DNA from: a phage | Strand: one strand, 5' to 3' | Length of the DNA: 64,000 nt | NCBI GenBank assembly: GCA_036253035.1 | Contig: GCA_036253035.1_4123.1 | In this document: piece by piece, positions 28,806-50,299 of the stretch | Position numbering within the stretch: the first letter of the stretch is position 1 | Layout of the letters: every line of letters starts with the position of its first letter | The notes under the pieces: model-generated | What the model was told of the DNA's origin: nothing | Seen by the model: only the letters and a program-made list of their open reading frames with translations | Databases searched by the model: none | Position numbers and translations under genes: made by a program

Positions 28806-29252
28806 TTAGTTATATGCTGTGAATAGGTCAATGTTTTTATCATCTACACTGATTAATTTGCCAGTTGAACTAACAAACACAATATTTCCACCGGGCGTTA
28901 GTTGAACACGCTGGTTAACTGAATATTGCCCATTAAGGTTGTAATCAGCCCATTCGACTACATAACGTTGAATAACACCGTTAGTATCATAAAGATAAAC
29001 GTGTGTCACGTCACGCATTTTCAAACGTTCCAACAATGTAGAGTTATCCATGAAATCAGATGGTGTATTGCTGCGTAAAGCAATACCAAACTCACCGATA
29101 ACAGTACTAATTGTCAGTCCGTTTGAAAAACGGCTACAAAGAGTCTTCTCATCAGCAATATGCATCCATAAAACATTCTTTACATCAATATCAACAAATT
29201 CACAGTTTTCAAAAACCAAACCTACTTTGGAAACTTTACCATTAAATTGCAT
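28806..29252 (-). CDS. hypothetical protein
   Basis: minus ORF 148 aa. Confidence 0.55.
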   Translation of the reverse strand: MQFNGKVSKVGLVFENCEFVDIDVKNVLWMHIADEKTLCSRFSNGLTISTVIGEFGIALRSNTPSDFMDNSTLLERLKMRDVTHVYLYDTNGVIQRYVVEWADYNLNGQYSVNQRVQLTPGGNIVFVSSTGKLISVDDKNIDLFTAYN

Positions 29253-29652
29253 TAGTAACTCCTATTTTTTTATATTTTAAAATTAAATCACTCACGGCTT
29301 TCATTAGATTATATGGAATAGCTAACTCTTTAACAGTACTATCCATAAAATGTTCTTCTTCGGTATCATAAAATGTTGAACTATAGTGTTCACAATCATT
29401 TATACTATCATAAAAAGAAGACGTAAGTTTATCGACAATGACAGTGATTTGTTTACCAGTTTTGGTATATCCTACCTGAACGGTTAATCCAATATCATCA
29501 GCCTCTACACGAATTATAAACGAATTATTAGTATAGTTCAGCCAACAATCTTCACCAAAGTATACAACACTGTGTTTCTTCTGAAATGAAGTTGCGGTGT
29601 TAAGAACGCCAATAGCAACATCAACTGTTTTTTCATTTAAAATATTAGACAT
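29242..29652 (-). CDS. EExxFQxS-motif family protein
   Basis: C-terminal TEEEHFMDSTVKE; internal ATG 29652 avoids overlap. Confidence 0.55.
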   Translation of the reverse strand: MSNILNEKTVDVAIGVLNTATSFQKKHSVVYFGEDCWLNYTNNSFIIRVEADDIGLTVQVGYTKTGKQITVIVDKLTSSFYDSINDCEHYSSTFYDTEEEHFMDSTVKELAIPYNLMKAVSDLILKYKKIGVTNAI

Positions 29653-30061
29653 TTGTGTTCCTGCTTCGTATGTTTCGTGAAATCTCAAAAATACCATTCA
29701 ACTGTTCAACAGTTAAACCCTGTAAATCATAAACAGTTGATAGTTGAAAGAAAAGTTCTGAATCTATACTATCATGTTCAATTGGAAGATTCAAGAGGTC
29801 TTTGTTAATAAAATAATCATATGTTCGAATTGTCAAAGAATCACCAAAGATATCAATGTAAAATTTCGGAACATTATGTAACGAAACATCTATTAATATG
29901 TTTTCAGCATATCTACAAGAAATTTTAGAATTATTTTTATAAGATTGGTATGAAAAATTATAAGGTTCATCGACCAATGTGTATGATGAGGTATCACCTT
30001 CGGAAAATATTACACCACATTCAATAAGATGTGTTAACGACTTAGGTGGAATTTTTAACAT
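29645..30061 (-). CDS. EExxFQxS-motif family protein
   Basis: 138 aa; DSELFFQLSTVYDLQGLT. Confidence 0.6.
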   Translation of the reverse strand: MLKIPPKSLTHLIECGVIFSEGDTSSYTLVDEPYNFSYQSYKNNSKISCRYAENILIDVSLHNVPKFYIDIFGDSLTIRTYDYFINKDLLNLPIEHDSIDSELFFQLSTVYDLQGLTVEQLNGIFEISRNIRSRNTNV

Positions 30062-30062
30062 T

Positions 30063-30491
30063 TCACTTCCTATCCTTACTCATATTACTACGGATCACCC
30101 CACTAAGAAAACATATTTTCCTTAATGTATCATAACTGATATTTGTAAGATCATGTACAAAATTCAACTGCAAGTACATTTCTTCAGTTAATTGATTAAA
30201 TGTATCATCAACACAAATGTTAGTATGTTCCGTTATATCTATTTCTATATTATTTTCCCAAATATCAATGCTAACAGCATAGTCTGATGTATGTCTGGAT
30301 TGAACTGAAATAAAAATATTATTACTGTTGTATAATGTCTCGGTGTATCCATTCAAAAATGATCCAACGACAACATCAAAAATGCCATCTCTAATTGGAT
30401 TTTTTGTTTCAAACGTATCACTACAAACTTGACGGTATACAATGTCAACATACTTATCAATTAAAGTAAACAAATAACTCATTGCATTCAC
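30063..30491 (-). CDS. EExxFQxS-motif family protein
   Basis: 142 aa; TEEMYLQLNFVHDLT. Confidence 0.6.
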   Translation of the reverse strand: MNAMSYLFTLIDKYVDIVYRQVCSDTFETKNPIRDGIFDVVVGSFLNGYTETLYNSNNIFISVQSRHTSDYAVSIDIWENNIEIDITEHTNICVDDTFNQLTEEMYLQLNFVHDLTNISYDTLRKICFLSGVIRSNMSKDRK

Positions 30492-30496
30492 CTATA

Positions 30497-30527
30497 TAAG
30501 AAAAAAGGCCGATTCATCGAATCAGCC
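30497..30527 (-). terminator. rho-independent terminator
   Basis: minus GGCTGATTCgatGAATCGGCC + tttttt. Confidence 0.7.
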
Positions 30528-30716
30528 TTAAGTATAACACAGTAGAAGTTAAAAAGTCAACTTCTAAATTACAGCATCCAAGAGGAATAAAAAGATACTG
30601 TTAGAGGGTAACGAATATAATGAATTTGAGGGTAATATCATTATACGTAAAAAAGTGATAGCTTCTATACATAAGGAGGAATCAGTACTGACTAGAAGCT
30701 ATCGGGTTAAACGATT

Positions 30717-31001
30717 TCAGTACTGAGTGTTTAGTTTAGGATGAGTATTTCCATCTTCGATTTGTTTTAGAATCGAGTCACGAATTTCTACTGCCCCTTG
30801 ATAACTATATTTATCTTTTGGGATCACCCATGTATATTCGCCATCAGTGGTTTTAAAATCAATACATGGATTATCCCTGTATTCAGATGCAATGATTGCA
30901 ATAACATGTAATGAATTCAATGAATGATTTGTATAAGGATAATTGTTATTATCTCTGAACGTGAATGTTTTAAGTTCATCAGGTGCAACAATGAATTCCA
31001 T
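30717..31001 (-). CDS. hypothetical protein
   Basis: minus ORF 94 aa. Confidence 0.5.
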   Translation of the reverse strand: MEFIVAPDELKTFTFRDNNNYPYTNHSLNSLHVIAIIASEYRDNPCIDFKTTDGEYTWVIPKDKYSYQGAVEIRDSILKQIEDGNTHPKLNTQY

Positions 31002-31192
31002 TATTCATCCTCGTACTTCTTGAATGGTGGAACATCTACCTTGAAGTCTTTGCACATCTTAGTTGTACGAACTTCAGTACCGTTGTGATAATTTTTCTTA
31101 AATTCATAAGAAACATAATTACGAATACCAGGTGTATGAATAATAGCAAGAACCAATGTACGACCAAACAAGCATAATAAATTCCAGAACAT
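31001..31192 (-). CDS. hypothetical protein
   Basis: minus ORF 63 aa. Confidence 0.45.
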   Translation of the reverse strand: MFWNLLCLFGRTLVLAIIHTPGIRNYVSYEFKKNYHNGTEVRTTKMCKDFKVDVPPFKKYEDE

Positions 31193-31201
31193 ATGAATCT
31201 C

Positions 31202-31567
31202 CTAATTGTGGGTTTTAACCAAACGTGAGACAGCTAGTATAGCATTAACCTCATCCAATGTCAACCCACCAATGTCATTAATCATTGAGTACTGAAATAG
31301 TGATTCTTCAGTGTAATGGTAATCATGAGAAGCAATAAAGATTGCTGGTTTAGATGCATCCAAAATTATCTTTGTCATTGTACTATATATATCAAATTGA
31401 TATAATAGATTTTCACCTGTATATGCTACGTAGATATTATTTGAATAGGCTGGATGTACCATTGTAAAACCATCATAACATAATATTTTTATGTTCGGAT
31501 CGTCAAAATTGCCTGTATAAAGGTTATTACAAACATCTTGCATTATACGTACTATTAGACTAGTCAT
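31202..31567 (-). CDS. EExxFQxS-motif family protein
   Basis: 121 aa; TEESLFQYSMINDIGGLT. Confidence 0.6.
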   Translation of the reverse strand: MTSLIVRIMQDVCNNLYTGNFDDPNIKILCYDGFTMVHPAYSNNIYVAYTGENLLYQFDIYSTMTKIILDASKPAIFIASHDYHYTEESLFQYSMINDIGGLTLDEVNAILAVSRLVKTHN

Positions 31568-31985
31568 TTAATGGATTTAGTACCTCTTCTGGAATCAACT
31601 TTTGAACTTTAAGTATAGCTTTAATGTCCTCAAATGTTAATCCTAATATGTCGTTAAGGAGGCAGTACTGGAAGAATTTTTCTTCAGTATCAATATCGTT
31701 AACATTCAATTCAATTGATTCATCATCATAATCATAATCTTCATTATCACATTCATAACTTCTGAATATAACTTTTTCAAAATACACATCAAATGAATAA
31801 AAATGATTATTGAATTCATAACCAAGAAAAATATTAAAACATTTACTCAAATCTGTGGTTTGATTCAAATCTGGATCATAGCAAAATACTCTAACTTCAC
31901 CAATATCTTCTAATTGTACATCATGCAATGACCATGCGTTGTTTTTTAATACATAGTTCACCATTCTAACAATGTTGTATTTCAT
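31560..31985 (-). CDS. EExxFQxS-motif family protein
   Basis: 141 aa; TEEKFFQYCLLNDILGLT. Confidence 0.6.
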   Translation of the reverse strand: MKYNIVRMVNYVLKNNAWSLHDVQLEDIGEVRVFCYDPDLNQTTDLSKCFNIFLGYEFNNHFYSFDVYFEKVIFRSYECDNEDYDYDDESIELNVNDIDTEEKFFQYCLLNDILGLTFEDIKAILKVQKLIPEEVLNPLND

Positions 31986-31991
31986 AGTGTA

Positions 31992-32081
<90 letters not shown>

Positions 32082-32093
32082 AGAAGTAAGATA

Positions 32094-32194
<101 letters not shown>

Positions 32195-32249
32195 GCCAAG
32201 TGTCGGCATAGGTGCAGCACTACAAAGTACTTCAAGCTGTTTGGCAGTC

Positions 32250-32336
<87 letters not shown>

Positions 32337-32338
32337 TA

Positions 32339-32464
<126 letters not shown>

Positions 32465-32483
32465 GCATACTCGAAGTACCTCT

Positions 32484-32589
<106 letters not shown>

Positions 32590-32633
32590 AATTGCTTTAT
32601 AAGCTACTGAATCGGGAATCACAACCTCCCCAT

Positions 32634-33151
<518 letters not shown>

Positions 33152-33172
33152 TTATACCTCTCATTGTTTATG

Positions 33173-33244
<72 letters not shown>

Positions 33245-33248
33245 TAAT

Positions 33249-33856
<608 letters not shown>

Positions 33857-33907
33857 ATAAACCTCACTATACGTAACTTACACCATATACGTCTGATTGT
33901 GGAATTC

Positions 33908-33932
33908 ATTATATCAGTACTGAACTATTTAG

Positions 33933-33936
<4 letters not shown>
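33908..33936 (-). promoter_or_regulatory. sigma-70-type promoter (TTGACT-17-TATAAT)
   Basis: plus attata(33908-33913)..agtcaa(33931-33936). Confidence 0.6.
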
Positions 33937-34345
<409 letters not shown>

Positions 34346-34355
34346 GCTTTTTTTT

Positions 34356-34517
<162 letters not shown>

Positions 34518-34521
<4 letters not shown>

Positions 34522-34678
34522 AATCGTACCAGTAGTTCAATTAAGTACATTTCATATGCTGGATCGTTGATAAGTTTATCATACAGATGTGGCTCTGAAA
34601 TGAATTCCCAATGATACTTTAGCCATCTACCGATACCCGAATATCTAAAATTAATGTCATTCATCCATTCTTCATGTG

Positions 34679-34682
<4 letters not shown>
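34518..34682 (-). CDS. MTHEEW-family mini-protein (54 aa), copy 2
   Basis: MTHEEWMNDINFRYSGIGRW..; ATGA overlap with copy 1. Confidence 0.5.
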
Positions 34683-34843
<161 letters not shown>

Positions 34844-34866
34844 GGTTTTTAACCTTTAATTAAAAT

Positions 34867-34943
34867 TGGCCGAGGTAGAGGGACTTGAACCCCCAACCTA
34901 GAGATTAGAATTCTCTTGCACTATCCAATTGTGCTATACCCCG
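34867..34943 (-). tRNA. tRNA-Arg (anticodon UCU), CCA encoded
   Basis: acceptor CGGGGTA/TACCTCG, T-arm GGGGG-TTCAAGT-CCCTC, anticodon loop AUUCUAA. Confidence 0.8.
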
Positions 34944-34947
34944 TATT

Positions 34948-35063
<116 letters not shown>

Positions 35064-35096
35064 ATGTTATGTCCCATTATATAATGAATTAATGAT

Positions 35097-35315
35097 TTAT
35101 GCAAGTGCTTTAGATACACCGACACCAATAATTCCAGTGATATCGATATGGATATTGGCAAGTTGATTACTATCATATGGGTTTGTTTCTGTAATAACCA
35201 ATGTTGTATCATTGACTAAAACCACAGTACCTTTTACACGATAACCATGTAGTAGTACTTGAACCTCATCTTCAGGTTTTAATGATTGAATAACTTCAAA
35301 TAAAGTTGTTTCCAT
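35097..35315 (-). CDS. hypothetical protein
   Basis: track ORF 35097..35423; ATG 35315 with AAGGA RBS avoids overlap. Confidence 0.45.
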   Translation of the reverse strand: METTLFEVIQSLKPEDEVQVLLHGYRVKGTVVLVNDTTLVITETNPYDSNQLANIHIDITGIIGVGVSKALA

Positions 35316-35331
35316 TTTTTGTATTCCTTGT

Positions 35332-35514
35332 TTAGTTTTGATTATTTGACTTTCTAAATGCCAGTTCGCATATAAACCAGGGTTTTCTGGTATCCAAAAC
35401 ATATGACCTGAAAAGATTTTCATCTCTTAATATATCATAATGTACCTGACGAATGCCATTCCCAAAGCAGTCATGTTCTTTATGCTGTTTGGACATCCAT
35501 TCTTCGTGTGTCAT
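35332..35514 (-). CDS. MTHEEW-family mini-protein
   Basis: MTHEEWMSKQHKEHDCFGNGIRQVHYDIL.. Confidence 0.5.
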   Translation of the reverse strand: MTHEEWMSKQHKEHDCFGNGIRQVHYDILRDENLFRSYVLDTRKPWFICELAFRKSNNQN

Positions 35515-35515
35515 T

Positions 35516-35851
<336 letters not shown>

Positions 35852-35856
35852 TCTTA

Positions 35857-36033
35857 CTATTTTTTATCTCTAATAGCAAGCTCGTAGATGAACCAGTGGT
35901 TGGAATCTTCGTCCAAAACCAATGATTCGAACGTTTTTTTATCGTTCAAAACATCATAATGGCCTTGGCGTATACCAAATCCAAAATGATCATGTTTATA
36001 TTTTAGTGACTCTATCCATTCTTCATGTGTCAT
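35857..36033 (-). CDS. MTHEEW-family mini-protein
   Basis: MTHEEWIESLKYKHDHFGFGIRQGHYDVL.. Confidence 0.5.
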   Translation of the reverse strand: MTHEEWIESLKYKHDHFGFGIRQGHYDVLNDKKTFESLVLDEDSNHWFIYELAIRDKK

Positions 36034-36111
36034 TTTATGTATCCAGTTCAATTAAGTGTTTCATTTATTCTTCTGTAAAGAAAGCATTGCAATGGACAAT
36101 GGAAAAGGTTA

Positions 36112-36291
36112 TTATATTTTTTTGTCTCTAACCGCAAGCTCATAGATGAACCAACGATTTCCATTCTCATCTAGTACATATGATTCGAACTTATATTTGT
36201 CTCGTAAAATATCGAAATGACCATCAATAAATCCATTTCCAAACTGGTCATAACGTTTTTTCATCATTGCCATCCATTCTTCATGTGTCAT
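36112..36291 (-). CDS. MTHEEW-family mini-protein (59 aa), not in ORF track
   Basis: MTHEEWMAMMKKRYDQFGNGFIDGHFDIL.. Confidence 0.45.
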   Translation of the reverse strand: MTHEEWMAMMKKRYDQFGNGFIDGHFDILRDKYKFESYVLDENGNRWFIYELAVRDKKI

Positions 36292-36473
36292 CTCTTAATA
36301 TCCATAACGGCTATACTAAAATATGTACCAAAATCATCACAATTGATAATGTTGTTATAGTACTCAATTGGGTTACGCAATGATATATACAATTCAAGCT
36401 TAAAATAGTATATATCTGCTGCATTTATATTATAGTGTAGATTAAACCACTCATCAAATGTCTTAGGCTGCAT
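36288..36473 (-). CDS. hypothetical protein
   Basis: minus ORF 61 aa. Confidence 0.4.
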   Translation of the reverse strand: MQPKTFDEWFNLHYNINAADIYYFKLELYISLRNPIEYYNNIINCDDFGTYFSIAVMDIKR

Positions 36474-36867
36474 TATATTTATCTTTATAAAAATCCATGA
36501 TTTTAGTCAACAGTACTGCAATCGTATAATCTAAATCAGGATAAAGTAAATTGTACTGAAATTCTTCCTCAACACTATAGTTAGTGGTACAGTACTGGTA
36601 ATCTTTATAACCTATTGAAAAATAATTCGGATACAATGTACAACGAAAGCGATAAGCTTCATCTGTCATATAATCATTGTATTCAACACAGAAGTATAGT
36701 GATTTTGAATTTAATTCGATAAGCTCAACGAATCCATCAGGTAATGAATGGTTATAAATTACTGAATCTTCATTAAACCATTCATAGTATTTTTCCAAAA
36801 AATCACTAATGGATACATCCAGACTTTGTATAGGTGGAGTTATGATAATTTGAACTTCTTTATTCAT
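36463..36867 (-). CDS. EExxFQxS-motif family protein
   Basis: 134 aa; YSVEEEFQYNLLYPDLD. Confidence 0.6.
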   Translation of the reverse strand: MNKEVQIIITPPIQSLDVSISDFLEKYYEWFNEDSVIYNHSLPDGFVELIELNSKSLYFCVEYNDYMTDEAYRFRCTLYPNYFSIGYKDYQYCTTNYSVEEEFQYNLLYPDLDYTIAVLLTKIMDFYKDKYNAA

Positions 36868-37367
36868 TTCGACCCCTTACTATATTTCACGTATGGGTTA
36901 TCATACAGATCATAACTTTTTTGTGCACGTTCTTTTCGGCGTTCATACATGATTCTATCATACTCTTTAGCTTTCTGATTTGCTTCATTATACAATTTTA
37001 AAATTAGCAAAAATGCATCAAGATCGGGATAGTTTGCCGGATTGATAGTACTCAGCATAAATCGTTCTTCTTCAGTTCTAGCTAAGTCAAATTCATACTT
37101 AATAGTTTTATACCCACTCCATTTATATATATGCGTTACTTTATTAGTAAGTACATTATATTCAACGAAGTCAGTACTACCATCAAGTACACGAGTAATC
37201 TTAATAGATGTACCAATGACAATCTGCACAGAACTCATTTCTGAAGTTTTAAAGTAATAAATGTTATTACGGCGAAGATTAACTTCTCGATCTCCAATGC
37301 GAACATGCTTAATAACTTCCATTAATGGTTCTGGGACACCACGAATCGGCATGTTAGTATTCCTCAA
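36864..37367 (-). CDS. EExxFQxS-motif family protein (with extended C-terminus)
   Basis: 167 aa; TEEERFMLSTINPA. Confidence 0.6.
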   Translation of the reverse strand: MRNTNMPIRGVPEPLMEVIKHVRIGDREVNLRRNNIYYFKTSEMSSVQIVIGTSIKITRVLDGSTDFVEYNVLTNKVTHIYKWSGYKTIKYEFDLARTEEERFMLSTINPANYPDLDAFLLILKLYNEANQKAKEYDRIMYERRKERAQKSYDLYDNPYVKYSKGSK

Positions 37368-37923: not shown

Positions 37924-37970
37924 ATGTTCTCCTTAGTAAGTCATAGTATTATATCAGAGTTTCATTGCAC

Positions 37971-38363
37971 TTACCAGCATGTTTTCATAACTTCTGTGAT
38001 GTAAATCATTTTATCTTTTAGTGTGTAAGGGATGCAAATTTCACCTGGGCTTAACGTTGTGTTCTTTTGAAACTCATCTTCTTCGGAATCAGCCAGGTAA
38101 AATGGGTGTGTCACAAAGGTATCATCAACTGGACGATTATGTGGTTTCATTAATGCATCATGATTGACAAAATAATAAGCATCAATATCAGGACGGAAAT
38201 ACAAACAATCAACCTTAATGCACGGGTGTAACCATAAGGACAAAGAATATGTTATTTGGTTACCAATTTGTCTTGGGCCTGATGCAATTGTATTGATGTT
38301 ATTTTTATCTTGTACCATTTCATAAATGAAATCTATCATTTCGTGTAGTTCTGATTCAGTCAT
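37971..38363 (-). CDS. EExxFQxS-motif family protein (divergent)
   Basis: 130 aa; SEEDEFQKNTTLSP. Confidence 0.55.
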   Translation of the reverse strand: MTESELHEMIDFIYEMVQDKNNINTIASGPRQIGNQITYSLSLWLHPCIKVDCLYFRPDIDAYYFVNHDALMKPHNRPVDDTFVTHPFYLADSEEDEFQKNTTLSPGEICIPYTLKDKMIYITEVMKTCW

Positions 38364-38373
38364 TTTATTTCCT

Positions 38374-38410: not shown

Positions 38411-38417
38411 GTAACGT

Positions 38418-41458: not shown

Positions 41459-41652
41459 TCCTCAAGATGCATGTAGTACATAAACATCGCCAACCATATA
41501 AAAAACCCGAAACAACGAAGTAAAATATCAATTGTTGGATCTGTCCCACCATTAACTTGGTAAACGATTACTGGGATTAAAGCAATAGTAATAGACACAG
41601 CACATAAGATGAATGCAACAAACACCTCAAACATAAACTTAATCGTTTCCAT
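41455..41652 (-). CDS. small membrane protein
   Basis: 65 aa, two TM helices. Confidence 0.5.
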   Translation of the reverse strand: METIKFMFEVFVAFILCAVSITIALIPVIVYQVNGGTDPTIDILLRCFGFFIWLAMFMYYMHLED

Positions 41653-42211: not shown

Positions 42212-42243
42212 TTCGTATATCCTCGTTTAATTAATATAGGAGT

Positions 42244-42272
42244 ATTATATATACTCCATTTTCATGTGTCAA
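42244..42272 (-). promoter_or_regulatory. sigma-70-type promoter (TTGACA-17-TATAAT)
   Basis: plus attata(42244-42249)..tgtcaa(42267-42272). Confidence 0.6.
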
Positions 42273-42411
42273 GCTTTATAATACGGAAGACTTTTTACTA
42301 AAGATTCAGACGTATTATTTTTTACCCATGTACTACCGTTATCATTAGATACGTATCCAGTACCATTAATAAATTTACGCATAATACCAGTAAAAATATT
42401 AGTATACACCA

Positions 42412-42609
42412 TTACTCAGTATCCTTTGGTTTAGAATGTAAACCATACTTTTCATCATAACGATCATAGGTAGTACCATTAGTACTAGCTTTGATGCTTT
42501 CAGTACGATTGATTGGTTCAATCTTAACACCACGATAACCAATCTCTTCTTTAAATTGTTCCCATGATTCACGTAAACTCATTTTAGCCCCTTTTGTTAT
42601 TTCATACAC
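42412..42609 (-). CDS. hypothetical protein
   Basis: minus ORF 65 aa. Confidence 0.45.
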   Translation of the reverse strand: MYEITKGAKMSLRESWEQFKEEIGYRGVKIEPINRTESIKASTNGTTYDRYDEKYGLHSKPKDTE

Positions 42610-42740
42610 TCACGTAGGTCAATCTTTTCTACTGACCCACCGAGCACTAGATAGTGAAAATTAGAATCTTTGTTTGCCATATTCAAAAGATCTGCTTTCT
42701 GTTGAAGCGTAAAGCGTGAAGTACTGTTACGTACTGGCAT
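42597..42740 (-). CDS. small hypothetical protein (47 aa), not in ORF track
   Basis: MPVRNSTSRFTLQQKADLLNMANKD..; strong RBS AAGGAG. Confidence 0.45.
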   Translation of the reverse strand: MPVRNSTSRFTLQQKADLLNMANKDSNFHYLVLGGSVEKIDLRECMK

Positions 42741-42742
42741 AG

Positions 42743-43186
42743 TTACTCCTTAAAGTAGATATCACGAATTTGTTTAATCATCTCTAACTCTTGAAGTCCT
42801 ATCATACCAAAGTCTTCTTGTATTGTCAACTGCTGAAAGTACATTTCTTCTAAATTATTGTACGGGATCTCAACAAGATTCAAAGGCTCACTTTCCACAC
42901 GATAAATTGTATCTTGTACATCATGTTTTTCGATATGAATACTAAATGTATCTTTTTGAATTCTAAATTTATAAAATGTTTGATTTGTTGTAAACAAACC
43001 AACTTTAGGATGGAATCCCATTTGAATACACAAACAATCTTCATCCTTATATTTCAAGTATATAGCTTTTGACGTTGCTAGTACTTTAGATTTTGGGAAA
43101 TAAAAATCACCCATCAGCTTCTGACGTTTCCAGTCCTCATATACAACTGGATGCTTAACCTTCTTCAATTGGTGCAGTACTGTCAT
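42743..43186 (-). CDS. EExxFQxS-motif family protein
   Basis: 147 aa; NLEEMYFQQLTIQEDFG. Confidence 0.6.
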   Translation of the reverse strand: MTVLHQLKKVKHPVVYEDWKRQKLMGDFYFPKSKVLATSKAIYLKYKDEDCLCIQMGFHPKVGLFTTNQTFYKFRIQKDTFSIHIEKHDVQDTIYRVESEPLNLVEIPYNNLEEMYFQQLTIQEDFGMIGLQELEMIKQIRDIYFKE

Positions 43187-43566
43187 AGTTTTTTCCAGTC
43201 CAATGAATCGAAATCGATTTGTTCAGGATTATCAACAGCGACAACTCGTGCATTATGAAGAGTTTCAAAGTAGCCGTTCCACGGTGTACGTACTGGGATT
43301 TTTTCATCTCCAATTTTTACAAAGAAAGAGAATTCACATGACATTGGATCAAACCATTCTTTATGTTTGGCTTCATCGATTATTGTAGCACGTTCGTTAC
43401 TATATGCATCATCGAGTTTCTTAAAGAATACCCAATGCTCTTTCAAAGACTGTAATGCTACAACTGCCTCATCCTTTGATTCCCATTGAACATCCAATGT
43501 ATTGGTAACTGAATCTTCAGTTTCAGTGTCCCCTGTAGTGTAATGTACTTCAATGCAGTATTTCAT
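43183..43566 (-). CDS. hypothetical protein
   Basis: minus ORF 127 aa. Confidence 0.55.
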   Translation of the reverse strand: MKYCIEVHYTTGDTETEDSVTNTLDVQWESKDEAVVALQSLKEHWVFFKKLDDAYSNERATIIDEAKHKEWFDPMSCEFSFFVKIGDEKIPVRTPWNGYFETLHNARVVAVDNPEQIDFDSLDWKKL

Positions 43567-44018
43567 TATTCATCACCTTTTAGTAATTTACAAATTTCAA
43601 TCATATGATAATAACATGTATTCCAAAATTGTCCATTAGTACTTCCAACATCATGCACAGTACTTAGCTGGAACACATATTCATCGTTAAACATATTTTT
43701 CATATCTTCAACGTAACATTCTTTTTTAGAATCATAGTTATATTCTATACTCATTTCTCCATCTGGGTCAAGTGATATTGATGATATGTCTTGAACGAAG
43801 GCGGGGTTTGTTGGAGAAAAGTATAACGTAAGTTGATAGCAGTCTGGGTCAGTTTCATAACAATACACAATATTATAATTCCCACCCGTGGTTGGGCTGT
43901 ATTTAAATTCTGTTTTATTAGTATTTGACATGCTATACCCAAGGTTCTTTATCTCTTGGAGATGTAATAATATTTTATGTAAAGTTCCTAAAACATGAAT
44001 CAAATTATCAATTTTCAT
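43566..44018 (-). CDS. EExxFQxS-motif family protein
   Basis: 150 aa; DEYVFQLSTVHDVG. Confidence 0.6.
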   Translation of the reverse strand: MKIDNLIHVLGTLHKILLHLQEIKNLGYSMSNTNKTEFKYSPTTGGNYNIVYCYETDPDCYQLTLYFSPTNPAFVQDISSISLDPDGEMSIEYNYDSKKECYVEDMKNMFNDEYVFQLSTVHDVGSTNGQFWNTCYYHMIEICKLLKGDE

Positions 44019-44557
44019 TTACGTTCCTTTAAAAAGTTCAGTTTAAAAGTTTTACCAAATTCCATTGTAGCTTTACCCAGATTGTTAATATTTTCTTTCA
44101 ACATTTCTTGCATCTTCCTAATACTTTCATTCCAGGCTTCTTCTTCTTTGCGGAGGACTGGTCGCAATCGTTCCTGAATATCGTTAAAACGTGTATTGAG
44201 TTCAACCAATGATTCATATGTGAAATCTTTCATATCGATGATAGTACTACGTTGAAAGAATTCTTCTTCAGACAAATTACTTAAAATGATTTTATCACGA
44301 CCAATAGATAATGTCAATTCATCATCTTTATTTTTTTTAATTACAATACTAACAGGTGTTTTTAATGTAATGCAAATATCATGATTATTAAATGTTTCAG
44401 TTTGGTTTGACATTCTGAATTGAAGTTTCCCAGATAAAGCATGTACTGGTGATGGTTTCTTTTTACCAGTAATAACATCTTCCCATGAATCGAGAATATT
44501 ATTAATAATTTTAACATAAGGAATTGGCATATATGCACCTATGAAAAATCCACGCAA
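44015..44557 (-). CDS. EExxFQxS-motif family protein (with extended C-terminus)
   Basis: 180 aa; SEEEFFQRSTIIDM. Confidence 0.6.
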   Translation of the reverse strand: MRGFFIGAYMPIPYVKIINNILDSWEDVITGKKKPSPVHALSGKLQFRMSNQTETFNNHDICITLKTPVSIVIKKNKDDELTLSIGRDKIILSNLSEEEFFQRSTIIDMKDFTYESLVELNTRFNDIQERLRPVLRKEEEAWNESIRKMQEMLKENINNLGKATMEFGKTFKLNFLKERK

Positions 44558-44572
44558 TGCGTGGATTTGTAA

Positions 44573-45103
44573 TTATTCAAGTATAGTAATTTCAATTAAA
44601 CGAATTTCGATAAACTCGTTTTCAGTTTCCCATGACGTGCCAAATTTCTTTTCAAGTTCAGATTTCACATCACTTTTAAATTTTCCCATAGTATTAGGAA
44701 TAATTTGTTTGGTTAATTTGTCGTAACCACAATAAAACATAGGTTTCTCCCTTCGAGATATTAGCTGAACAAAATCTTTTGGATATGCAGGTATGTTATG
44801 CATCACTTCATGAATACACTCAGTACTTGAATCTTGTACTTTGTACATTACATTAAGTTTACCTCTGAAATTTGCGGTCATATCAACAATAGTTCCTTTA
44901 CCCGATTTAAGTAAAGTTCCATTCTTTGAATGAGAGCAATAAAATACCTCATCACCAATATTAGGATAATACAAATTAAATTCTAATTCAGATTTTACAG
45001 CCAGCCGTTTGAAACTTTCTGTACGTTTTATATAAGTTTGGTATTTGTTTATGTTCAAAAGAATATCTCTCTTAGTAAATGTGATATAACTGGCATAGTC
45101 CAT
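44573..45103 (-). CDS. hypothetical protein
   Basis: minus ORF 176 aa; 5' end overlaps methyltransferase gene. Confidence 0.5.
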   Translation of the reverse strand: MDYASYITFTKRDILLNINKYQTYIKRTESFKRLAVKSELEFNLYYPNIGDEVFYCSHSKNGTLLKSGKGTIVDMTANFRGKLNVMYKVQDSSTECIHEVMHNIPAYPKDFVQLISRREKPMFYCGYDKLTKQIIPNTMGKFKSDVKSELEKKFGTSWETENEFIEIRLIEITILE

Positions 45104-45915
45104 CCATTCCCAAGCATTTTGTATGCTTGTGTCTTACTAGACACTTTAAAGAAATCTTCAGGAACACCCTGTAATTTACAACATTCTACTACACTTAAGT
45201 GTCTATAGTCAATATTTCTTTTGCCATTCTCTAATAGATATTGACGACTGATCACTGGGTCACGAAACACCAATTGTCGTCTGGATTTATTAAAGTACTG
45301 GTTACAATCACCACCTTTAAAATAGTTAGCATCTATACAGTACGAAGCGGTTCTGTCAGTGTACCAACCATCTTCAATAATATCTTGAAGTTTAGGTGCA
45401 TTGGATAATGCAGGTGGTATAAAAAGCTTATCAGTACTGTACCAGTAATATCTCTGCCTGAAGTGAGGCGTATAATGCTGGGAGTTTATCAGTACTGGCG
45501 TGATTCCTAAAATACTATTAATGTATTCTTTGAAATCTTCCTTCATTTTAACATTTTCAAACAGAAATTTCAAGTTAGGATTGAGACTTTTGATATGATC
45601 AAAAATTTCAACCATTACTAAAAATAACTGCCCACGTATATCATTTAAACCACCCTGTTTACCTGCAACTGACCAGGCTTGGCATGGGAAACCACCCATT
45701 AATAAATCTATTTTGTCCCACTCAATATCCCATTCTCTCCACTTAGTTACATCACCCAATTGGATAATATCAGGAAAGTTAGATTGAGATTCAGCTATTG
45801 CGTACTTATCAATTTCGGATGAATAATATTTTTCAACTGGGATACCCGCATCTTGCAATGCCATATATCCCACACTCATTCCATTAAAAAGAGAAAGTAC
45901 TCGGATAGGTTTCAT
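45055..45915 (-). CDS. DNA (cytosine-5)-methyltransferase
   Basis: 286 aa; motif IV GGFPCQAWS, ENV, C-terminal QAYKMLGNGWTMPV. Confidence 0.75.
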   Translation of the reverse strand: MKPIRVLSLFNGMSVGYMALQDAGIPVEKYYSSEIDKYAIAESQSNFPDIIQLGDVTKWREWDIEWDKIDLLMGGFPCQAWSVAGKQGGLNDIRGQLFLVMVEIFDHIKSLNPNLKFLFENVKMKEDFKEYINSILGITPVLINSQHYTPHFRQRYYWYSTDKLFIPPALSNAPKLQDIIEDGWYTDRTASYCIDANYFKGGDCNQYFNKSRRQLVFRDPVISRQYLLENGKRNIDYRHLSVVECCKLQGVPEDFFKVSSKTQAYKMLGNGWTMPVISHLLREIFF

Positions 45916-45967
45916 ATAAAATCCTTTTTATATTGTTAAGGTACTATAATATATTATAGCATCTTAT

Positions 45968-46258
45968 TTAGAAATCTTCCAAACTTTTTTCATCACACCA
46001 TCGTGATGTACAGATGATTGCAGATGCCAGAATTGAAGCACTTGCACGTCCTCCACCGAGTAAATACTGGCTAATTACGCCAATCATATTGAACACTTTA
46101 TCATACTCGGTTAGTTGTTCAAAACCTTTCTTCCAATGCTGATATTCTTCTTCTGTGACATTAAACTCACCATCAAGTTCCTTTAAAATCTTTTTAAGCA
46201 CAGCACTATGTTCACTCATCATCATCTCCATATCGTTCGTCATAAAAATCATCATCAC
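45968..46258 (-). CDS. hypothetical protein
   Basis: minus ORF 96 aa. Confidence 0.5.
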   Translation of the reverse strand: MMMIFMTNDMEMMMSEHSAVLKKILKELDGEFNVTEEEYQHWKKGFEQLTEYDKVFNMIGVISQYLLGGGRASASILASAIICTSRWCDEKSLEDF

Positions 46259-46297
46259 GATCTAATGGTTCTTTTGGCTTTTCAGACATATATTTCC

Positions 46298-46558
46298 TCA
46301 CATGGTAAAGGTATTATCACCATCCATATCTTCATCAGTTGCTTCAGCTAATGTCTTGATTGTAAGTAATCCACGCTTCACGTACATCATGAAGACCTTT
46401 TCATAATTACCAAACATAATCTCAGGTGACATGTAATTCTCTGTTACAATGACGATTGGACGGCCCTGTGAAAGCATACGAAACATAGTACGATATTTGT
46501 CAAATGTGCGAAATTCATCCATGTTCATCATGTGGCGTTTACGAACTACTTTAGTCAT
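46298..46558 (-). CDS. hypothetical protein
   Basis: minus ORF 86 aa. Confidence 0.5.
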   Translation of the reverse strand: MTKVVRKRHMMNMDEFRTFDKYRTMFRMLSQGRPIVIVTENYMSPEIMFGNYEKVFMMYVKRGLLTIKTLAEATDEDMDGDNTFTM

Positions 46559-46572
46559 CTTATTACCTTTAG

Positions 46573-47013
46573 TTAATTGAACTCTACTTCTGGATAATGA
46601 TTATAGAACATCTCACGAACTGCGTCAAGATGTTCTTGAAATTGTTTTATATCTTCTAATGATGGTGCATCAATAACAGTACTAAGTTGAAACAACGATT
46701 CTTCTGTGTTATATAGTGACATATCAAATGAATTATTGTTGTCATCAGTTATGATATTATCACAAATTTCGTAAGTGTCAATACAAACATCATCAAGTGT
46801 TGTATTATCATATACAGTGTATACGAATACAAAAATAAAAGAAGAATGTTCTTTACCATAACGGGGTGGGTCATATGTCACATAGCATTTGTGGTCAAAT
46901 GTATCGAGTTCCATAGACACCACCCCAGCTTCACGATATTCATTAGTTTCACTGGTAAGATCCGGTATTGATGTTATCGAAAGTAAGTGGAGAAATTTAC
47001 TTGGATTTAGCAT
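46573..47013 (-). CDS. EExxFQxS-motif family protein
   Basis: 146 aa; TEESLFQLSTVIDAPSL. Confidence 0.6.
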   Translation of the reverse strand: MLNPSKFLHLLSITSIPDLTSETNEYREAGVVSMELDTFDHKCYVTYDPPRYGKEHSSFIFVFVYTVYDNTTLDDVCIDTYEICDNIITDDNNNSFDMSLYNTEESLFQLSTVIDAPSLEDIKQFQEHLDAVREMFYNHYPEVEFN

Positions 47014-47468
47014 TTCACCACCATTGGATTTTGCGACTGTATATTAAAAAGGGATAATACAAAAGTACTCAATTTTTCGAAACAATCTACTAATACATTT
47101 AACTCATCATAACTAACACCAATTTCACGAATAAGCGATTGTTGAAAGAATCCTTCTTCGGTTAACGTTAAACTACTAACCTCAGTTATGTTATAATAAC
47201 TTTGGGATGTTGTGGTTGATATTAGTTGTATTGCAATCGTATCTGATGTTGTGTTGTACAGATATAAATATTTTGTTTTTCTTTCCAATGGATCTATACA
47301 TGAAAGATCGATCATGTCATAGGTTTTTCCAATAAAAATATTACAATCATCTGACAATTCACAACAAATGCGTATATGTTCTTTCGGGTCATGAACACGT
47401 TGTGTGTCAAATTCACATGACATTGCAATTTCAAAATGATTTTTTATTTCGTCAACATTCATCTGCAC
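47007..47468 (-). CDS. EExxFQxS-motif family protein
   Basis: 153 aa; TEEGFFQQSLIREIG. Confidence 0.6.
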   Translation of the reverse strand: MQMNVDEIKNHFEIAMSCEFDTQRVHDPKEHIRICCELSDDCNIFIGKTYDMIDLSCIDPLERKTKYLYLYNTTSDTIAIQLISTTTSQSYYNITEVSSLTLTEEGFFQQSLIREIGVSYDELNVLVDCFEKLSTFVLSLFNIQSQNPMVVKC

Positions 47469-47836
47469 CCACCATTAATTCTTATATTTGTATAGTTTAA
47501 TGCTTTTTTAATAATACCAATTTCTGTAATTCCTATTACATTTTTCTCAATCAATGACAATTGGAATAGTTCCTCTTCGGAAATATCAATACTGTGGATT
47601 CTTGTACAATAATCGTTGAAGTCATATACATATCGTATTGTATAGTCGTTTATAGAAACTGATACAATTGCAATTCCATCATGGATGTAAGTTAGTTCAT
47701 TTGAGTATCTATTAAAAATTAACCTATCTGGTGAACCTATTGGTAGTTGAAATGTATTTCTAGTATCTTGAACAATAACAAAATCATCATCTATATTTCT
47801 ACTCAGAACACCCAAAATATCATATATAGTAGTCAT
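47459..47836 (-). CDS. EExxFQxS-motif family protein
   Basis: 125 aa; SEEELFQLSLIEKN. Confidence 0.6.
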   Translation of the reverse strand: MTTIYDILGVLSRNIDDDFVIVQDTRNTFQLPIGSPDRLIFNRYSNELTYIHDGIAIVSVSINDYTIRYVYDFNDYCTRIHSIDISEEELFQLSLIEKNVIGITEIGIIKKALNYTNIRINGGCR

Positions 47837-47837
47837 G

Positions 47838-48242
47838 TTATTCTTTACCTTCAGCAGTTCTGATAATTTTCATAACTTCTCTGGATAGTGCGTATATTTT
47901 TTTATAGTACTCAAATGTAACTGAACCAAAATCATTAATAGTACTAGCCATGAAGAACGATTCTTCTGTATATAGTTCATTTGACAAAGCAACCAGTTCT
48001 TGGTGAAATTTTGCGTCCTTCCAATAACGAAATTCAAAAACAAATTGTCCGTCATGACCGACTCTACAACATTCAGAACGATCACTGTCTACACAGCTAA
48101 ACACAATATCCCTTTCAGAGTCGTACCAGATATTTCCAATATTTGTTTCAATAACAGCATAATCAATTTTTTTAGAATTTGGAATTAAACCTTTTTTCAC
48201 CAGCACTAAACTGGTATTATCAATATCTAGTAAACTTACCAT
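47838..48242 (-). CDS. EExxFQxS-motif family protein
   Basis: 134 aa; TEESFFMASTINDFG. Confidence 0.6.
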   Translation of the reverse strand: MVSLLDIDNTSLVLVKKGLIPNSKKIDYAVIETNIGNIWYDSERDIVFSCVDSDRSECCRVGHDGQFVFEFRYWKDAKFHQELVALSNELYTEESFFMASTINDFGSVTFEYYKKIYALSREVMKIIRTAEGKE

Positions 48243-48243
48243 A

Positions 48244-48654
48244 TCAATTCCCCATTACTAAAGTGTTTTTAATCTCCAACAATTCACTATACATATTCTT
48301 CAATTGTAATATATCTTCAAAAGTAATACCACCAAGATCATCAACTAATGAACGTTGGAATAAAGATTCACTTGTTTGTAATGTATCTAAATCGGTGATT
48401 TTTAATAAAGAACTTGGATTAAGTGTTTCGACTAGTAGTATGTTTTTGTATGGTACATATGTGATCTTGATGTTCTTTTTATAATTAATCTTATAAAATC
48501 GCATAATTGACGATTCATCACTTAGTTGGATAATTGGGTCGTCTTGTTCATTAGACCACCATACAGTACTAGTCATATGATTGACGTGGTGGTTCAATTC
48601 TGATATATCCAAATCTAAAAAATATTTTAGTTCATTGTGTAAATCTAAACTCAT
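48244..48654 (-). CDS. EExxFQxS-motif family protein
   Basis: 136 aa; TSESLFQRSLVDDLGGIT. Confidence 0.6.
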   Translation of the reverse strand: MSLDLHNELKYFLDLDISELNHHVNHMTSTVWWSNEQDDPIIQLSDESSIMRFYKINYKKNIKITYVPYKNILLVETLNPSSLLKITDLDTLQTSESLFQRSLVDDLGGITFEDILQLKNMYSELLEIKNTLVMGN

Positions 48655-48709
48655 AAATTTATCCTCAATGCAGCATCATCATGTATTGTAGGATAAACCC
48701 ACAATAATG

Positions 48710-49105
48710 TCAAGATGTGAAATAATTATACCAGTAATATAGTTCTTTTAATTCTTCAGTACTGAACAATACTTCTTCTATTGTAGATTGTTGAAAGTGA
48801 TATTCATCATTTAGATACATAGAAATATTACTATATACTTTCCTATTGTATTGACATAAAAAAGAAGTTTTTTGATTAATGTATTCAGTAAATGTTAATT
48901 TATCTAACTCAATATCGAATGATAATTTAATAATATGACTATTATCATTTACATACATTAGTTTCTTTGAAAAATGATCAATTGTAATATATTCTTTATG
49001 AGAGAACTGAAATATATTATTAAATTTATTACCATTTGTGCTTCTAAATTTTTCAAGGTAATAAGAAAGTGGTTTAATTATTGAAGTTCCAATATTGTTC
49101 TTCAT
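48710..49105 (-). CDS. EExxFQxS-motif family protein
   Basis: 131 aa; NDEYHFQQSTIEEV. Confidence 0.55.
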   Translation of the reverse strand: MKNNIGTSIIKPLSYYLEKFRSTNGNKFNNIFQFSHKEYITIDHFSKKLMYVNDNSHIIKLSFDIELDKLTFTEYINQKTSFLCQYNRKVYSNISMYLNDEYHFQQSTIEEVLFSTEELKELYYWYNYFTS

Positions 49106-49118
49106 ATATCCTCAATTT

Positions 49119-49146
49119 TAGATAAGAAAAATGCCCCGAAGATCGG
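49119..49146 (-). terminator. rho-independent terminator
   Basis: GCCCCGAagaTCGGGGC with flanking A/T runs. Confidence 0.65.
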
Positions 49147-49265
49147 GGCAGTACTAAAATGATTTTGTACCAAAAGGGGAATAAGAACAAAATGAAAATA
49201 TAATAACGCATCATTATTATGTAAGGGAGGAAAGTAACATGATATGTTAACCATTTCTGGTATAT

Positions 49266-49817
49266 TTATTTATCATTTAATTCTTTAAGTTGGGTTTGTA
49301 TATCTTTAGTTATATTTCGAATTTTCTTAAAGCAATAAACACTATCGTCCAATTCGATTTTAAGTTCATGTGTAAATGCATACAGAAGTTCAGCAAATAC
49401 TAAATCTTGACGCATCCAGTTTCCATCTTTATATAAAGTCATTACACAATATGGGCATTCACTATTAGAAGTTTGCTTTCCAATAAAAACACTTTGAATT
49501 GATTCATGCTTAAAGCCAATAAAACTTTCATTTATTTTTTTAATTTCAGTACTGATATCGAATTTAGCACTGGTGTTGATTGCAAAAATTTTATTCCCAC
49601 TTTCATCAGTATTGATATTGAGTTCAATATCACTACCTAGTTTACGTACTGCTAGAGTATAAAGAAGTAATTCATACATGTCGTAACTTGTTACATTACC
49701 ATTTGGTGCAATTACATCAACACTAACACCGTGCATTTTTACTTCTGTATTAAATCCATCTTTATCAGAAAGAAAATCAGTGATTTGCTTTGTAAGGATT
49801 TTAATTTGGTCTATCAT
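49266..49817 (-). CDS. hypothetical protein
   Basis: minus ORF 183 aa. Confidence 0.6.
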   Translation of the reverse strand: MIDQIKILTKQITDFLSDKDGFNTEVKMHGVSVDVIAPNGNVTSYDMYELLLYTLAVRKLGSDIELNINTDESGNKIFAINTSAKFDISTEIKKINESFIGFKHESIQSVFIGKQTSNSECPYCVMTLYKDGNWMRQDLVFAELLYAFTHELKIELDDSVYCFKKIRNITKDIQTQLKELNDK

Positions 49818-49837
49818 ATTTCATTTCCTTATGTGAT

Positions 49838-49863
49838 AAAAGCCTCCATTATGGAGGCTTTTG
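49838..49863. terminator. bidirectional rho-independent terminator
   Basis: aaAGCCTCCattatGGAGGCTtttt. Confidence 0.7.
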
Positions 49864-49870
49864 TATTTAC

Positions 49871-50299
49871 TTAGAGAGATTCTTCGTATTCAGCAACAAT
49901 CCCAACCATTTCATTAATGAACTTGATGTGAGAATGTGTCACTGTACGGAAGTCGTAAACAAGTGACTGTTGGAAAAATACATCTTCATCAAGAGAACCA
50001 TCAAAGTTCAAATCAATGTTTTCATCGTCATTGCTTGGTGCAACTTTAATATTCAGAAGATTTTCATCAACTGCAAGTTTTACAACACAACCCAGTGCAA
50101 TGGCAAGAACATATGCTGGTTTCTTAGCTTTTTCATTACGGAATGGTGCACGTAGAGCACAAAAAGTACTGCTAATCTCATCATTTGGTTCTTTGTATTT
50201 AACATTGACCATTAGTTCTTCGATTTTGACGCTCTCAATAACACGACCAGTTTCTGGAGCGAAGAAAGAATGTTCACGGATAGTTTGTTCGATATTCAT
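49871..50299 (-). CDS. EExxFQxS-motif family protein
   Basis: 142 aa; DEDVFFQQSLVYDF. Confidence 0.6.
   Translation of the reverse strand: MNIEQTIREHSFFAPETGRVIESVKIEELMVNVKYKEPNDEISSTFCALRAPFRNEKAKKPAYVLAIALGCVVKLAVDENLLNIKVAPSNDDENIDLNFDGSLDEDVFFQQSLVYDFRTVTHSHIKFINEMVGIVAEYEESL

Follow-up and report, generated by a model that had tools for sequence, protein, structure and literature searches.

A clade-specific family of small paralogous proteins sharing an EExxFQxS motif in 121Q/Rak2-like jumbo coliphages

The stretch of phage DNA analysed here (64,000 nucleotides of contig GCA_036253035.1_4123.1, assembly GCA_036253035.1; hereafter the window) carries 18 minus-strand genes whose small products form one family, the EExxFQxS family, characterized by the motif T-E-E-x-[FYL]-F-Q-x-S-[TL]-[IVL]-x-D. 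The family and its motif are real in the window, far beyond chance, and the 18 genes are part of an ancient superfamily specific to one phage clade, with ~50 members per genome in 121Q-type phages. The family is neither delineated nor named in the literature searched, where we found no paper naming it and no description of it in jumbo-phage surveys. Recognizing one family, one fold and one polar motif allows some 50 hypothetical proteins in each genome to be addressed together as one question, and the motif, its partners and the gene arrays offer an experimental handle on function.

Judged by sequence identity, the window comes from a 121Q/Rak2-like jumbo coliphage with a genome of ~350 kb. 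Positions 44000-50500 are 100% identical to Escherichia phage JP4 and 99.2-99.8% identical to 121Q, PBECO4, phAPEC6, G17 and other ~350-kb Asteriusvirus jumbo phages. The window does not match JP4 throughout, as shown by gene 31202-31567, which is 100% identical in 121Q and PBECO4 and 72.7% identical in JP4. The family genes are carried as hypothetical proteins in all depositors' annotations (JP4, G17, phAPEC6 and 121Q). Rak2-like jumbo phages are candidate therapeutic agents for use against E. coli, Klebsiella and Salmonella, yet over 80% of the genes they carry lack a known function (PMC7247149).

Motif and membership in the window

A loose regular expression for the motif matched 16 open reading frames (ORFs) on the coding strand and none on the opposite strand, compared with a mean of 0.07 and a maximum of 2 matches in 1000 residue shuffles, so the motif is significant above composition. 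In every match it lies at 53-78% of the protein length. Membership was defined by a significant match to a family profile built without the tested sequence, and four profile tests concur on 18 minus-strand ORFs, which we name below by their first coordinate. In leave-one-out searches with profile hidden Markov models (HMMs), all 18 ranked above the top scorer among the ~5,800 shuffled decoys of the respective run, with a narrow margin for 47459. An external HMM, built from remote database relatives alone, each less than 40% identical to any window ORF, returned exactly the same 18 ORFs at E<1e-4. Alignment to the external profile with hhalign gave probabilities of 88.7-97.8% for the 18 members and at most 6.2% for the remaining ORFs of 90-210 amino acids (aa), three ORFs treated separately below (33473, 36463 and 9970) aside. 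Finally, a profile made from 121Q members outside the window zone recovered 16 of the 18. The E-values given for these tests derive from small local databases and are not comparable with database-wide E-values.

All members lie on the minus strand and are described here by product length, motif sequence, external HMM E-value and hhalign probability. Upstream of the main cluster stands an outlier at 15578-16093 (171 aa; TEESVFQQSLIHN; E=1.5e-5; 94.0%), which scored E=2.3e-4 in the leave-one-out test. The main cluster opens with 29242-29697 (TEEEHFMDSTVKE; E=7.5e-9; 94.2%), whose longest ORF encodes 151 aa; related records annotate a 136-aa product, for which the start would be 29652. It is followed by 29645-30061 (138 aa; DSELFFQLSTVYD; E=6.3e-13; 97.5%), 30063-30491 (142 aa; TEEMYLQLNFVHD; E=1.1e-8; 94.8%), 31202-31567 (121 aa; TEESLFQYSMIND; E=8.5e-12; 97.4%) and 31560-31985 (141 aa; TEEKFFQYCLLND; E=7.4e-14; 97.8%), the last of which was used for AlphaFold model 1. 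Two members stand at 33933-34286 (117 aa; TEEEYFQMSTVQE; E=4.4e-9; 97.1%) and 36864-37367 (longest ORF 167 aa; TEEERFMLSTINP; E=1.1e-7; 89.8%). The 36864 protein, ~162 aa in related records, has a basic C-terminal extension and an isoelectric point (pI) of 9.3.

Further along the cluster are 42743-43186 (147 aa; LEEMYFQQLTIQE; E=7.3e-12; 96.6%), 43566-44018 (150 aa; NDEYVFQLSTVHD; E=1.1e-9; 95.7%) and 44015-44557 (longest ORF 180 aa; SEEEFFQRSTIID; E=2.2e-11; 97.6%), whose product, 171 aa in related records, carries a basic helical C-terminal extension (pI 8.9). The final run comprises 46573-47013 (146 aa; TEESLFQLSTVID; E=2.2e-8; 94.6%), with a net charge of -21, then 47007-47468 (153 aa; TEEGFFQQSLIRE; E=2.9e-10; 97.0%), 47459-47836 (125 aa; SEEELFQLSLIEK; E=5.4e-6; 94.7%), 47838-48242 (134 aa; TEESFFMASTIND; E=1.8e-13; 97.6%; AlphaFold model 2), 48244-48654 (136 aa; TSESLFQRSLVDD; E=8.2e-12; 97.3%), 48710-49105 (131 aa; NDEYHFQQSTIEE; E=3.6e-5; 88.7%; leave-one-out E=4.7e-6) and 49871-50299 (142 aa; DEDVFFQQSLVYD; E=1.3e-10; 96.5%).

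An earlier interpretation of this DNA, made from its letters alone (the sequence-only reading), had counted at least 21 paralogs. Eighteen are supported by the profiles, one is borderline and two are unsupported, and the count understates the family as a whole. The two unsupported ORFs, 33473-33856 (hhalign 7%) and 37971-38363 (1.8%), gained support from no profile and are not counted as members; both bear EE[DE]EFQ, one residue shorter than the family motif. The borderline case, a possible degenerate member at 36463-36867 (minus strand, 134 aa), has a shortened motif (VEEEFQYNLLYPD) and an hhalign probability of 43% over 59 columns. It scored just above shuffles with two profiles (the external and the 121Q-only profile) and failed the leave-one-out test. 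A second borderline ORF, absent from the earlier list, lies at 9970-10566 (minus strand, 198 aa; motif NDEEYFQESIVTE). Its external HMM score was 16.9 bits against 15.6 for the best shuffle, and hhalign gave 72.5% on 16 columns, which cover the motif region only.

Distribution and evolution of the family

The family extends well beyond the window. A scan of 121Q (positions 1-343,900, assembled from seven pieces) found 51 family ORFs at E<=1e-3 and 46 at E<=1e-4, with the best shuffled control at E=0.14. All are on a single strand, and together they make up ~8% of the genes of 121Q. Eighteen lie in the zone covered by the window (58-96 kb), and 24-28 (E<=1e-4 to 1e-3) in a second, larger zone at 160-190 kb (NC_025447.1, 160,700-189,200; locus L045), with motifs such as SEEYYFQQSTVYD and TEEWWFQQNLVHD. 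The other 4-5 are scattered, and small groups stand near 200.8, 239.7 and 255.5-256.9 kb.

Among 1.84 billion cluster representatives, a profile search returned 169 clusters (50% identity) at E<=1e-3. The listed matches are 62-217 aa long, and the motif is present in 142 of the 147 inspected; ten sampled clusters consist of unnamed proteins, some of them on metagenome contigs of up to ~362 kb. A tblastn search with the family consensus matched 71 deposited phages, all but one of which infect Enterobacterales, with hosts in Escherichia, Klebsiella, Salmonella, Erwinia, Yersinia, Pectobacterium, Serratia and Cronobacter; the exception is one Xanthomonas record, which was not inspected. The matched genomes listed are ~310-390 kb, two partial records aside. 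Structural neighbours in BFVD come almost entirely from the same phage clade, and a word-indexed homolog search with a broad alignment yielded nine matches and added little. Dense arrays recur in relatives. The syntenic 40 kb of vB_Ec-M-J contains 16 members, two fragments of RaK2 (17 kb together) contain 10, and a 20-kb portion of a distant 362-kb contig contains another 10. Neighbours of the array in a distant relative include an ADP-ribosylglycohydrolase, PTH2 and an HNH endonuclease.

The sequence-only reading had recognized no named domain, and this was confirmed in four kinds of search. In Pfam, eight of 10 members tested had no family at E<=0.1 and two had weak matches, none to MAM33; NCBIfam and PADLOC gave no match for any of the 18; and a sequence-profile search of the PDB gave nothing at curated thresholds. 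Ten longer relatives showed no fused domain in Pfam. In PHROGs, all 10 members tested have strong matches, nine to their own group and two sharing phrog_17453, and most of them also cross-match other groups weakly (e.g. 24941, 24510 and 23322). The family is thereby spread over at least 15 PHROGs, all labelled unknown function. Single-sequence searches connect only six of the 18 members, and this explains why PHROGs splits the family into many groups.

Large paralogous families have been reported from jumbo phages before. The authors of the RaK2 genome described nearly 10% of its gene products as paralogues, and 22 paralogous ORFs were reported in CBB (PMC5259590). Like the CBB paralogs and the ~35 zinc-ribbon genes of Bacillus phage G (PMC7824862), the EExxFQxS genes form a large family confined to one jumbo-phage lineage and without an assigned function. 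Unlike the published expansions, however, this family is bigger (46-51 per genome), ancient, and represented by 1:1 orthologs across genera.

In vB_Ec-M-J, 16 of 17 members have syntenic orthologs, and 29645 has none. Median identity to these orthologs is 72.6% for the family against 89.7% for neighbouring genes, and the median ratio of nonsynonymous to synonymous divergence (dN/dS, omega) is 0.25 against 0.075 (p=1.3e-4), so that the family evolves ~3 times faster; individual members range from 0.08 to 0.47. Within the proteins, the N-terminal part is less conserved than the 40-residue C-terminal module (identity 69% vs 80%, dN 0.20 vs 0.11, omega 0.31 vs 0.19; p=6e-4). Near-identical phages also show mosaicism of alleles and gene content, at 31202-31567 and at 30063-30491. 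The latter gene is absent from phage G17, where no coding sequence is annotated and an annotated terminator adjoins the gap.

Over longer distances the array is stable. Six members are collinear with the RaK2 array (locus L011): 49871 pairs with 6164-6655, 48244 with 7280-7702, 47838 with 7680-8129, 47007 with 9210-9674, 43566 with 11721-12191 and 42743 with 12573-13013. The best conserved across genera is 49871, with 133 bits to its RaK2 partner; 48244 has 27% identity (tblastn, E=2e-6), and the best RaK2 match of 42743 scores ~30 bits. These cross-genus pairs score 24-134 bits, above the best within-genome paralog of each member, and no paralog pair exceeds 37.5 bits. Because cross-genus orthologs outscore within-genome paralogs, the duplications are older than the divergence of Asteriusvirus from Alcyoneusvirus, and every paralog has been retained as a lineage of its own. 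Ancient 1:1 orthology together with purifying selection argues against an arsenal under rapid birth and death. The word arsenal in the sequence-only reading, taken as a set with fast turnover, is therefore not borne out by the ancient paralogs, the collinear 1:1 RaK2 orthologs and dN/dS values below 1.

Predicted fold and the conserved motif

Members are 115-190 aa long and are taken to be soluble, as no transmembrane segments were found in them. A logo of 120 sequences, typically 12-25% identical, reads T71-E95-E95-x-[F47/Y27/L16]-F99-Q87-x-S90-[T48/L46]-[I/V/L]-x-D77-[F/L]-G-x-[L/I]-[T/S]-[Y/L/F]-E57 (numbers give percent frequency), followed by an amphipathic helix. In the N-terminal part, scattered hydrophobic positions alone are conserved. 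The description of diverged N-terminal two-thirds and a conserved C-terminal motif plus helix is borne out, and the motif can be seen directly in the translations.

AlphaFold model 1 (31560-31985; 39-sequence alignment) reached a mean predicted local distance difference test score (pLDDT) of 86 and a predicted template modelling score (pTM) of 0.79. It contains a helix at residues 5-15, seven strands, a helix at 101-110 that holds the motif, and a further helix at 118-128. Model 2 (47838-48242; 120-sequence alignment; pLDDT 73) has a beta-meander followed by helices at 93-102 (motif) and 110-130, with high confidence in its C-terminal half only, and lacks the N-terminal helix of model 1. In both, the motif block has a pLDDT of at least 90 and sits within a well-ordered helix. 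As predicted, each member would be a single alpha/beta domain in which a beta-meander sheet precedes a conserved two-helix module, the first module helix beginning with T-E-E-x-[FYL]-F-Q-x-S. A shared fold had been suggested as a point to check by structure prediction, and the two independent models have the same architecture. The proposal of a diversified array on a constant scaffold holds in that the N-terminal part evolves faster; since the two models share one fold, however, this is a family of whole domains and not one motif attached to unrelated proteins.

The T-E-E-x-hydrophobic stretch resembles a helix N-cap combined with a hydrophobic staple. The 95% conservation of both glutamates, together with that of Q, S and D, exceeds the need of capping, and these polar invariants (E95, E95, Q87, S90 and D77) suggest an interaction site and not a packing core alone. 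Two resemblances of the motif to known short motifs were considered. The beta-clamp-binding consensus is QL[SD]LF, which Q-x-S-[LT]-[IVL] resembles (QLSLI in 47459); we rejected a beta-clamp or PIP-like motif because the segment lies inside a confidently folded helix and turn in mid-domain (pLDDT of at least 90) and not at a flexible terminus or in a linker. The cleavage site of TEV/3C-like proteases is ExxYxQ|S, and the resemblance of EEEYFQ-MS is striking; here too the motif is in a confidently predicted helix, no search for such a protease was made, and a cleavage site is a speculative idea.

The proteins are acidic. Median pI is 4.7 in members against 5.8 in neighbouring ORFs, with 78% against 17% below pI 5, and the second-zone members of 121Q have a median pI of 4.71. 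Members 36864 and 44015, with their basic C-terminal extensions, are exceptions to this acidity.

Genomic setting and possible functions

Family genes are tightly packed on one strand, with neighbours overlapping by 1-10 nucleotides (nt) or standing 1 nt apart, and they lie far from the structural modules. We scanned positions 28000-51500 for strong sigma-70 consensus sites, defined by at least 10 of 12 matches, and found 33 on the coding strand but a single one on the opposite strand, where shuffles lead one to expect ~12 per strand (12.9 +/- 3.9, maximum 23). The bias combines enrichment on the coding strand with depletion on the non-coding strand, and many sites lie 30-60 nt upstream of gene starts. 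Examples on the minus strand are a promoter-like site at 48685-48713 (TTGACA, 17 nt, TACAAT), 31 nt upstream of the start of 48244-48654; one at 34318-34345 (10/12 matches), 32 nt upstream of that of 33933-34286; and one at 30531-30560 (10/12 matches, extended -10 TG), 40 nt upstream of that of 30063-30491. By this consensus matching the block looks early, in agreement with the sequence-only reading, which had placed it in an early region. In CBB, Buttimer et al. predicted RpoD-like promoters that cluster within a block of short hypothetical ORFs, and suspected these ORFs of being early host-takeover genes (PMC5259590). We located a CBB family member at ~311 kb, among tRNAs and short ORFs, matched to the published ORF numbering by position only.

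The virion proteome of phAPEC6 (62 proteins by mass spectrometry) contains nothing between gp079c and gp148c, the block that holds main-cluster members, and nothing between gp347 and gp549, where coordinate mapping would place the second zone. Virion structural or internal head proteins were rejected as an explanation given the absence of the main-cluster block, and the proteome supports, indirectly, members that are non-structural.

Our favoured reading, held tentatively, is that the members are early-expressed cytoplasmic proteins that bind host targets, in takeover or anti-defence, each on the shared scaffold. Host RNA polymerase would transcribe the genes early in infection from sigma-70-type promoters, and each paralog would engage a different cellular target through its own variable sheet surface, blocking the target or redirecting it. 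The two-helix module, which is conserved, would serve as the common core and perhaps as a shared docking surface. Host targets are favoured because promoters abound around the genes, the products are acidic, their evolution is accelerated and gene content varies between isolates; it is the early expression, the cytoplasmic action and the binding of host targets that we infer. T7 Ocr, T4 Arn, T4 AsiA and T7 Gp2 are small acidic early phage proteins that bind host targets. The EExxFQxS proteins resemble them in being small, acidic, non-structural, encoded in promoter-rich blocks and fast-evolving, whereas those are single genes and not 50-member families. PDB searches showed no similarity of sequence or fold to Ocr, Arn, AsiA or Gp2, and the family does not qualify as DNA-mimic anti-restriction proteins of the Ocr/ArdA type, for which similarity to a solved DNA mimic in fold or sequence would have to go together with an extreme negative surface charge. 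If the members do bind host targets, many new inhibitors of bacterial processes or defences could be drawn from the family.

Several points weigh against host-target binding. Nothing connects the proteins with a known family of anti-defence, toxin, immunity or regulator proteins, the promoters are called by consensus matching alone, and no transcriptome for Rak2-like phages of enterobacteria turned up in the literature searched. Of the 18 members, four are neutral or basic, omega is below 1 in every gene and in both regions, and ~50 distinct host targets are a lot for one phage. Furthermore, old paralogs with collinear 1:1 orthologs in Escherichia and Klebsiella phages fit stable specialised roles, possibly with phage partners, no less well than an arms race with the host. 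The host-takeover or anti-defence role proposed by the sequence-only reading is thus kept as the favoured reading, but without a match to a known anti-defence family: PADLOC found no known anti-phage defence component among the 18. Its other proposal, an array like those of immunity proteins, found no counterpart, with no immunity match in Pfam or NCBIfam and no toxin-domain gene annotated nearby in JP4, G17, phAPEC6 or 121Q.

A less probable explanation, which 1:1 orthology and purifying selection keep alive, is that the proteins act within the phage. Each paralog would then help a different phage protein or complex, as its chaperone, scaffold or assembly factor; the many fibre types, DNA condensation and the replication factory would be candidates. 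Collinear 1:1 orthologs are kept across genera with different hosts, purifying selection acts throughout, and the virions are unusually complex, with several fibre types (PMC7247149). Such helpers are harder to reconcile with the location of the genes, far from the structural modules and in short-ORF blocks rich in sigma-70 sites, not behind late promoters. Members are also gained, lost or swapped between near-identical phages with the same virion genes, and the family outpaces neighbouring genes in evolution.

It is improbable, in our estimate, that the paralogs are substrate adaptors. In that case the invariant C-terminal motif would dock all of them on one partner, either a conserved host hub or the phage's ClpA-, ClpP-, HslV- and ClpS-like proteolytic machinery, and the variable sheet would recruit clients. 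The near-invariant residues of the module are indeed polar (E, E, Q, S and D) across sequences otherwise 15-20% identical, and the N-terminal part evolves faster than the module. Deposited annotations of 121Q (genes 48, 464, 473, 475 and 581; loci L040, L046 and L048) include one ClpS-like, two ClpP-like, one HslV-like and one ClpA-like protein, which makes a proteolytic hub conceivable. By the same annotation, the set of ATP-dependent protease parts in 121Q is unusually full. On the other side, the motif lies in a well-ordered helix in both models and may be a mere helix cap plus core.

Recurrence of the motif in an otherwise unrelated protein also bears on adaptors. A locus search with a DNA pattern back-translated from TEEEFFQ gave 35 loci, 29 of which had no HMM match and were treated as chance. 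It led to a 122-aa protein of lambda-like prophages in Enterobacter, Klebsiella and Serratia with TEEE[FL]FQ[NE]S[TL][VI]D. On the Enterobacter hormaechei chromosome (10636-11004 in locus L006 and 10001-10369 in locus L043; motif TEEEFFQNSLVD), its gene lies between a serine recombinase and a lambda-like module of terminase, portal and capsid protease. Profile-profile alignment with the family covers 18 residues only, at 94% probability, and the match is inflated because the locus was picked by the motif itself. The protein was not counted as a family member, since the alignment consists of the 18 motif residues and no other similarity is detectable. The motif may perhaps be a portable functional unit.

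Poxvirus ankyrin/PRANC F-box-like proteins combine a variable binding domain with a constant C-terminal docking module. The likeness to these families is an analogy only (variability in the N-terminal part, conservation of a short C-terminal module and a large number of paralogs in each genome); there is no homology, and here both parts belong to one compact domain. The full form of the adaptor idea is rated slightly lower again: ~50 modular adaptors whose T-E-E-x-F-F-Q-x-S...D surface would plug every paralog into one hub while each sheet takes hold of a different host protein. Possible hubs are the phage's Clp/HslV-type machinery and a conserved enterobacterial protein. If true, such a set would be the phage counterpart of eukaryotic and poxviral substrate-receptor families, with the prophage motif as a portable docking peptide, and phages acting through adaptors to one common hub would be using a new strategy.

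Acidic oligomers of the p32/MAM33 type, acting as nucleic-acid mimics or sponges for basic host DNA- or RNA-binding proteins (restriction enzymes, nucleoid proteins or RNA polymerase factors), are likewise a doubtful explanation. The p32 fold consists of an N-terminal helix, seven antiparallel strands and two C-terminal helices (PMC8924301). Model 1 has the same order of elements, and like p32/gC1qBP/Mam33 the family is strongly acidic, the lowest net charge being -21. Unlike p32, the proteins are smaller, lack the N-terminal helix in model 2 and have no Pfam MAM33 match (10 members and 10 long relatives), and four members are not acidic. Foldseek comparison with p32 gave weak scores (TM-scores of at most 0.37, E of at least 0.1), and START-like and LolA-like folds score as well. 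No counterpart of the EExxFQxS motif is known in p32. Membership in p32/MAM33, considered for the topology, was not accepted on these scores. That the genes are functionless remnants of an old tandem duplication, or over-called ORFs, is hardly credible: some members are dispensable in some isolates, but dozens of genomes have intact reading frames, dN/dS lies between 0.08 and 0.47, the genera retain orthologs, the motif is kept in 169 sequence clusters and the fold predictions are confident.

Other features accompany the arrays. Seven tRNA genes stand between them at 32002-35829 on the minus strand (Thr-tgt, Asn-gtt, Met-cat, Ser-act, Arg-tct, Ser-tga and Gly-tcc), interleaved with a second small family of six tandem or nearby minus-strand ORFs of 54-66 aa at 34357-36291 (starting at 34357, 34518, 34679, 35332, 35857 and 36112). 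A Dcm-type DNA cytosine methyltransferase is encoded at 45055-45915 (minus strand) between two family runs, and all related records annotate it as a methyltransferase. An all-against-all phmmer comparison (E<1e-4) of the window's ORFs also linked the pairs 12439-12789 and 13181-13540, 7214-8767 and 9014-9397, and 4389-4730 and 4740-5078. In 121Q, the region 117,000-135,200 (locus L042) contains two further tandem expansions. One consists of 13 opposite-strand ORFs with annotations as RCC1-like or DNA-condensation proteins; in phAPEC6, some of the proteins that bear a DNA-condensation annotation are present in the virion proteome. The other comprises ~17 ORFs of ~60 aa at 131-135 kb.

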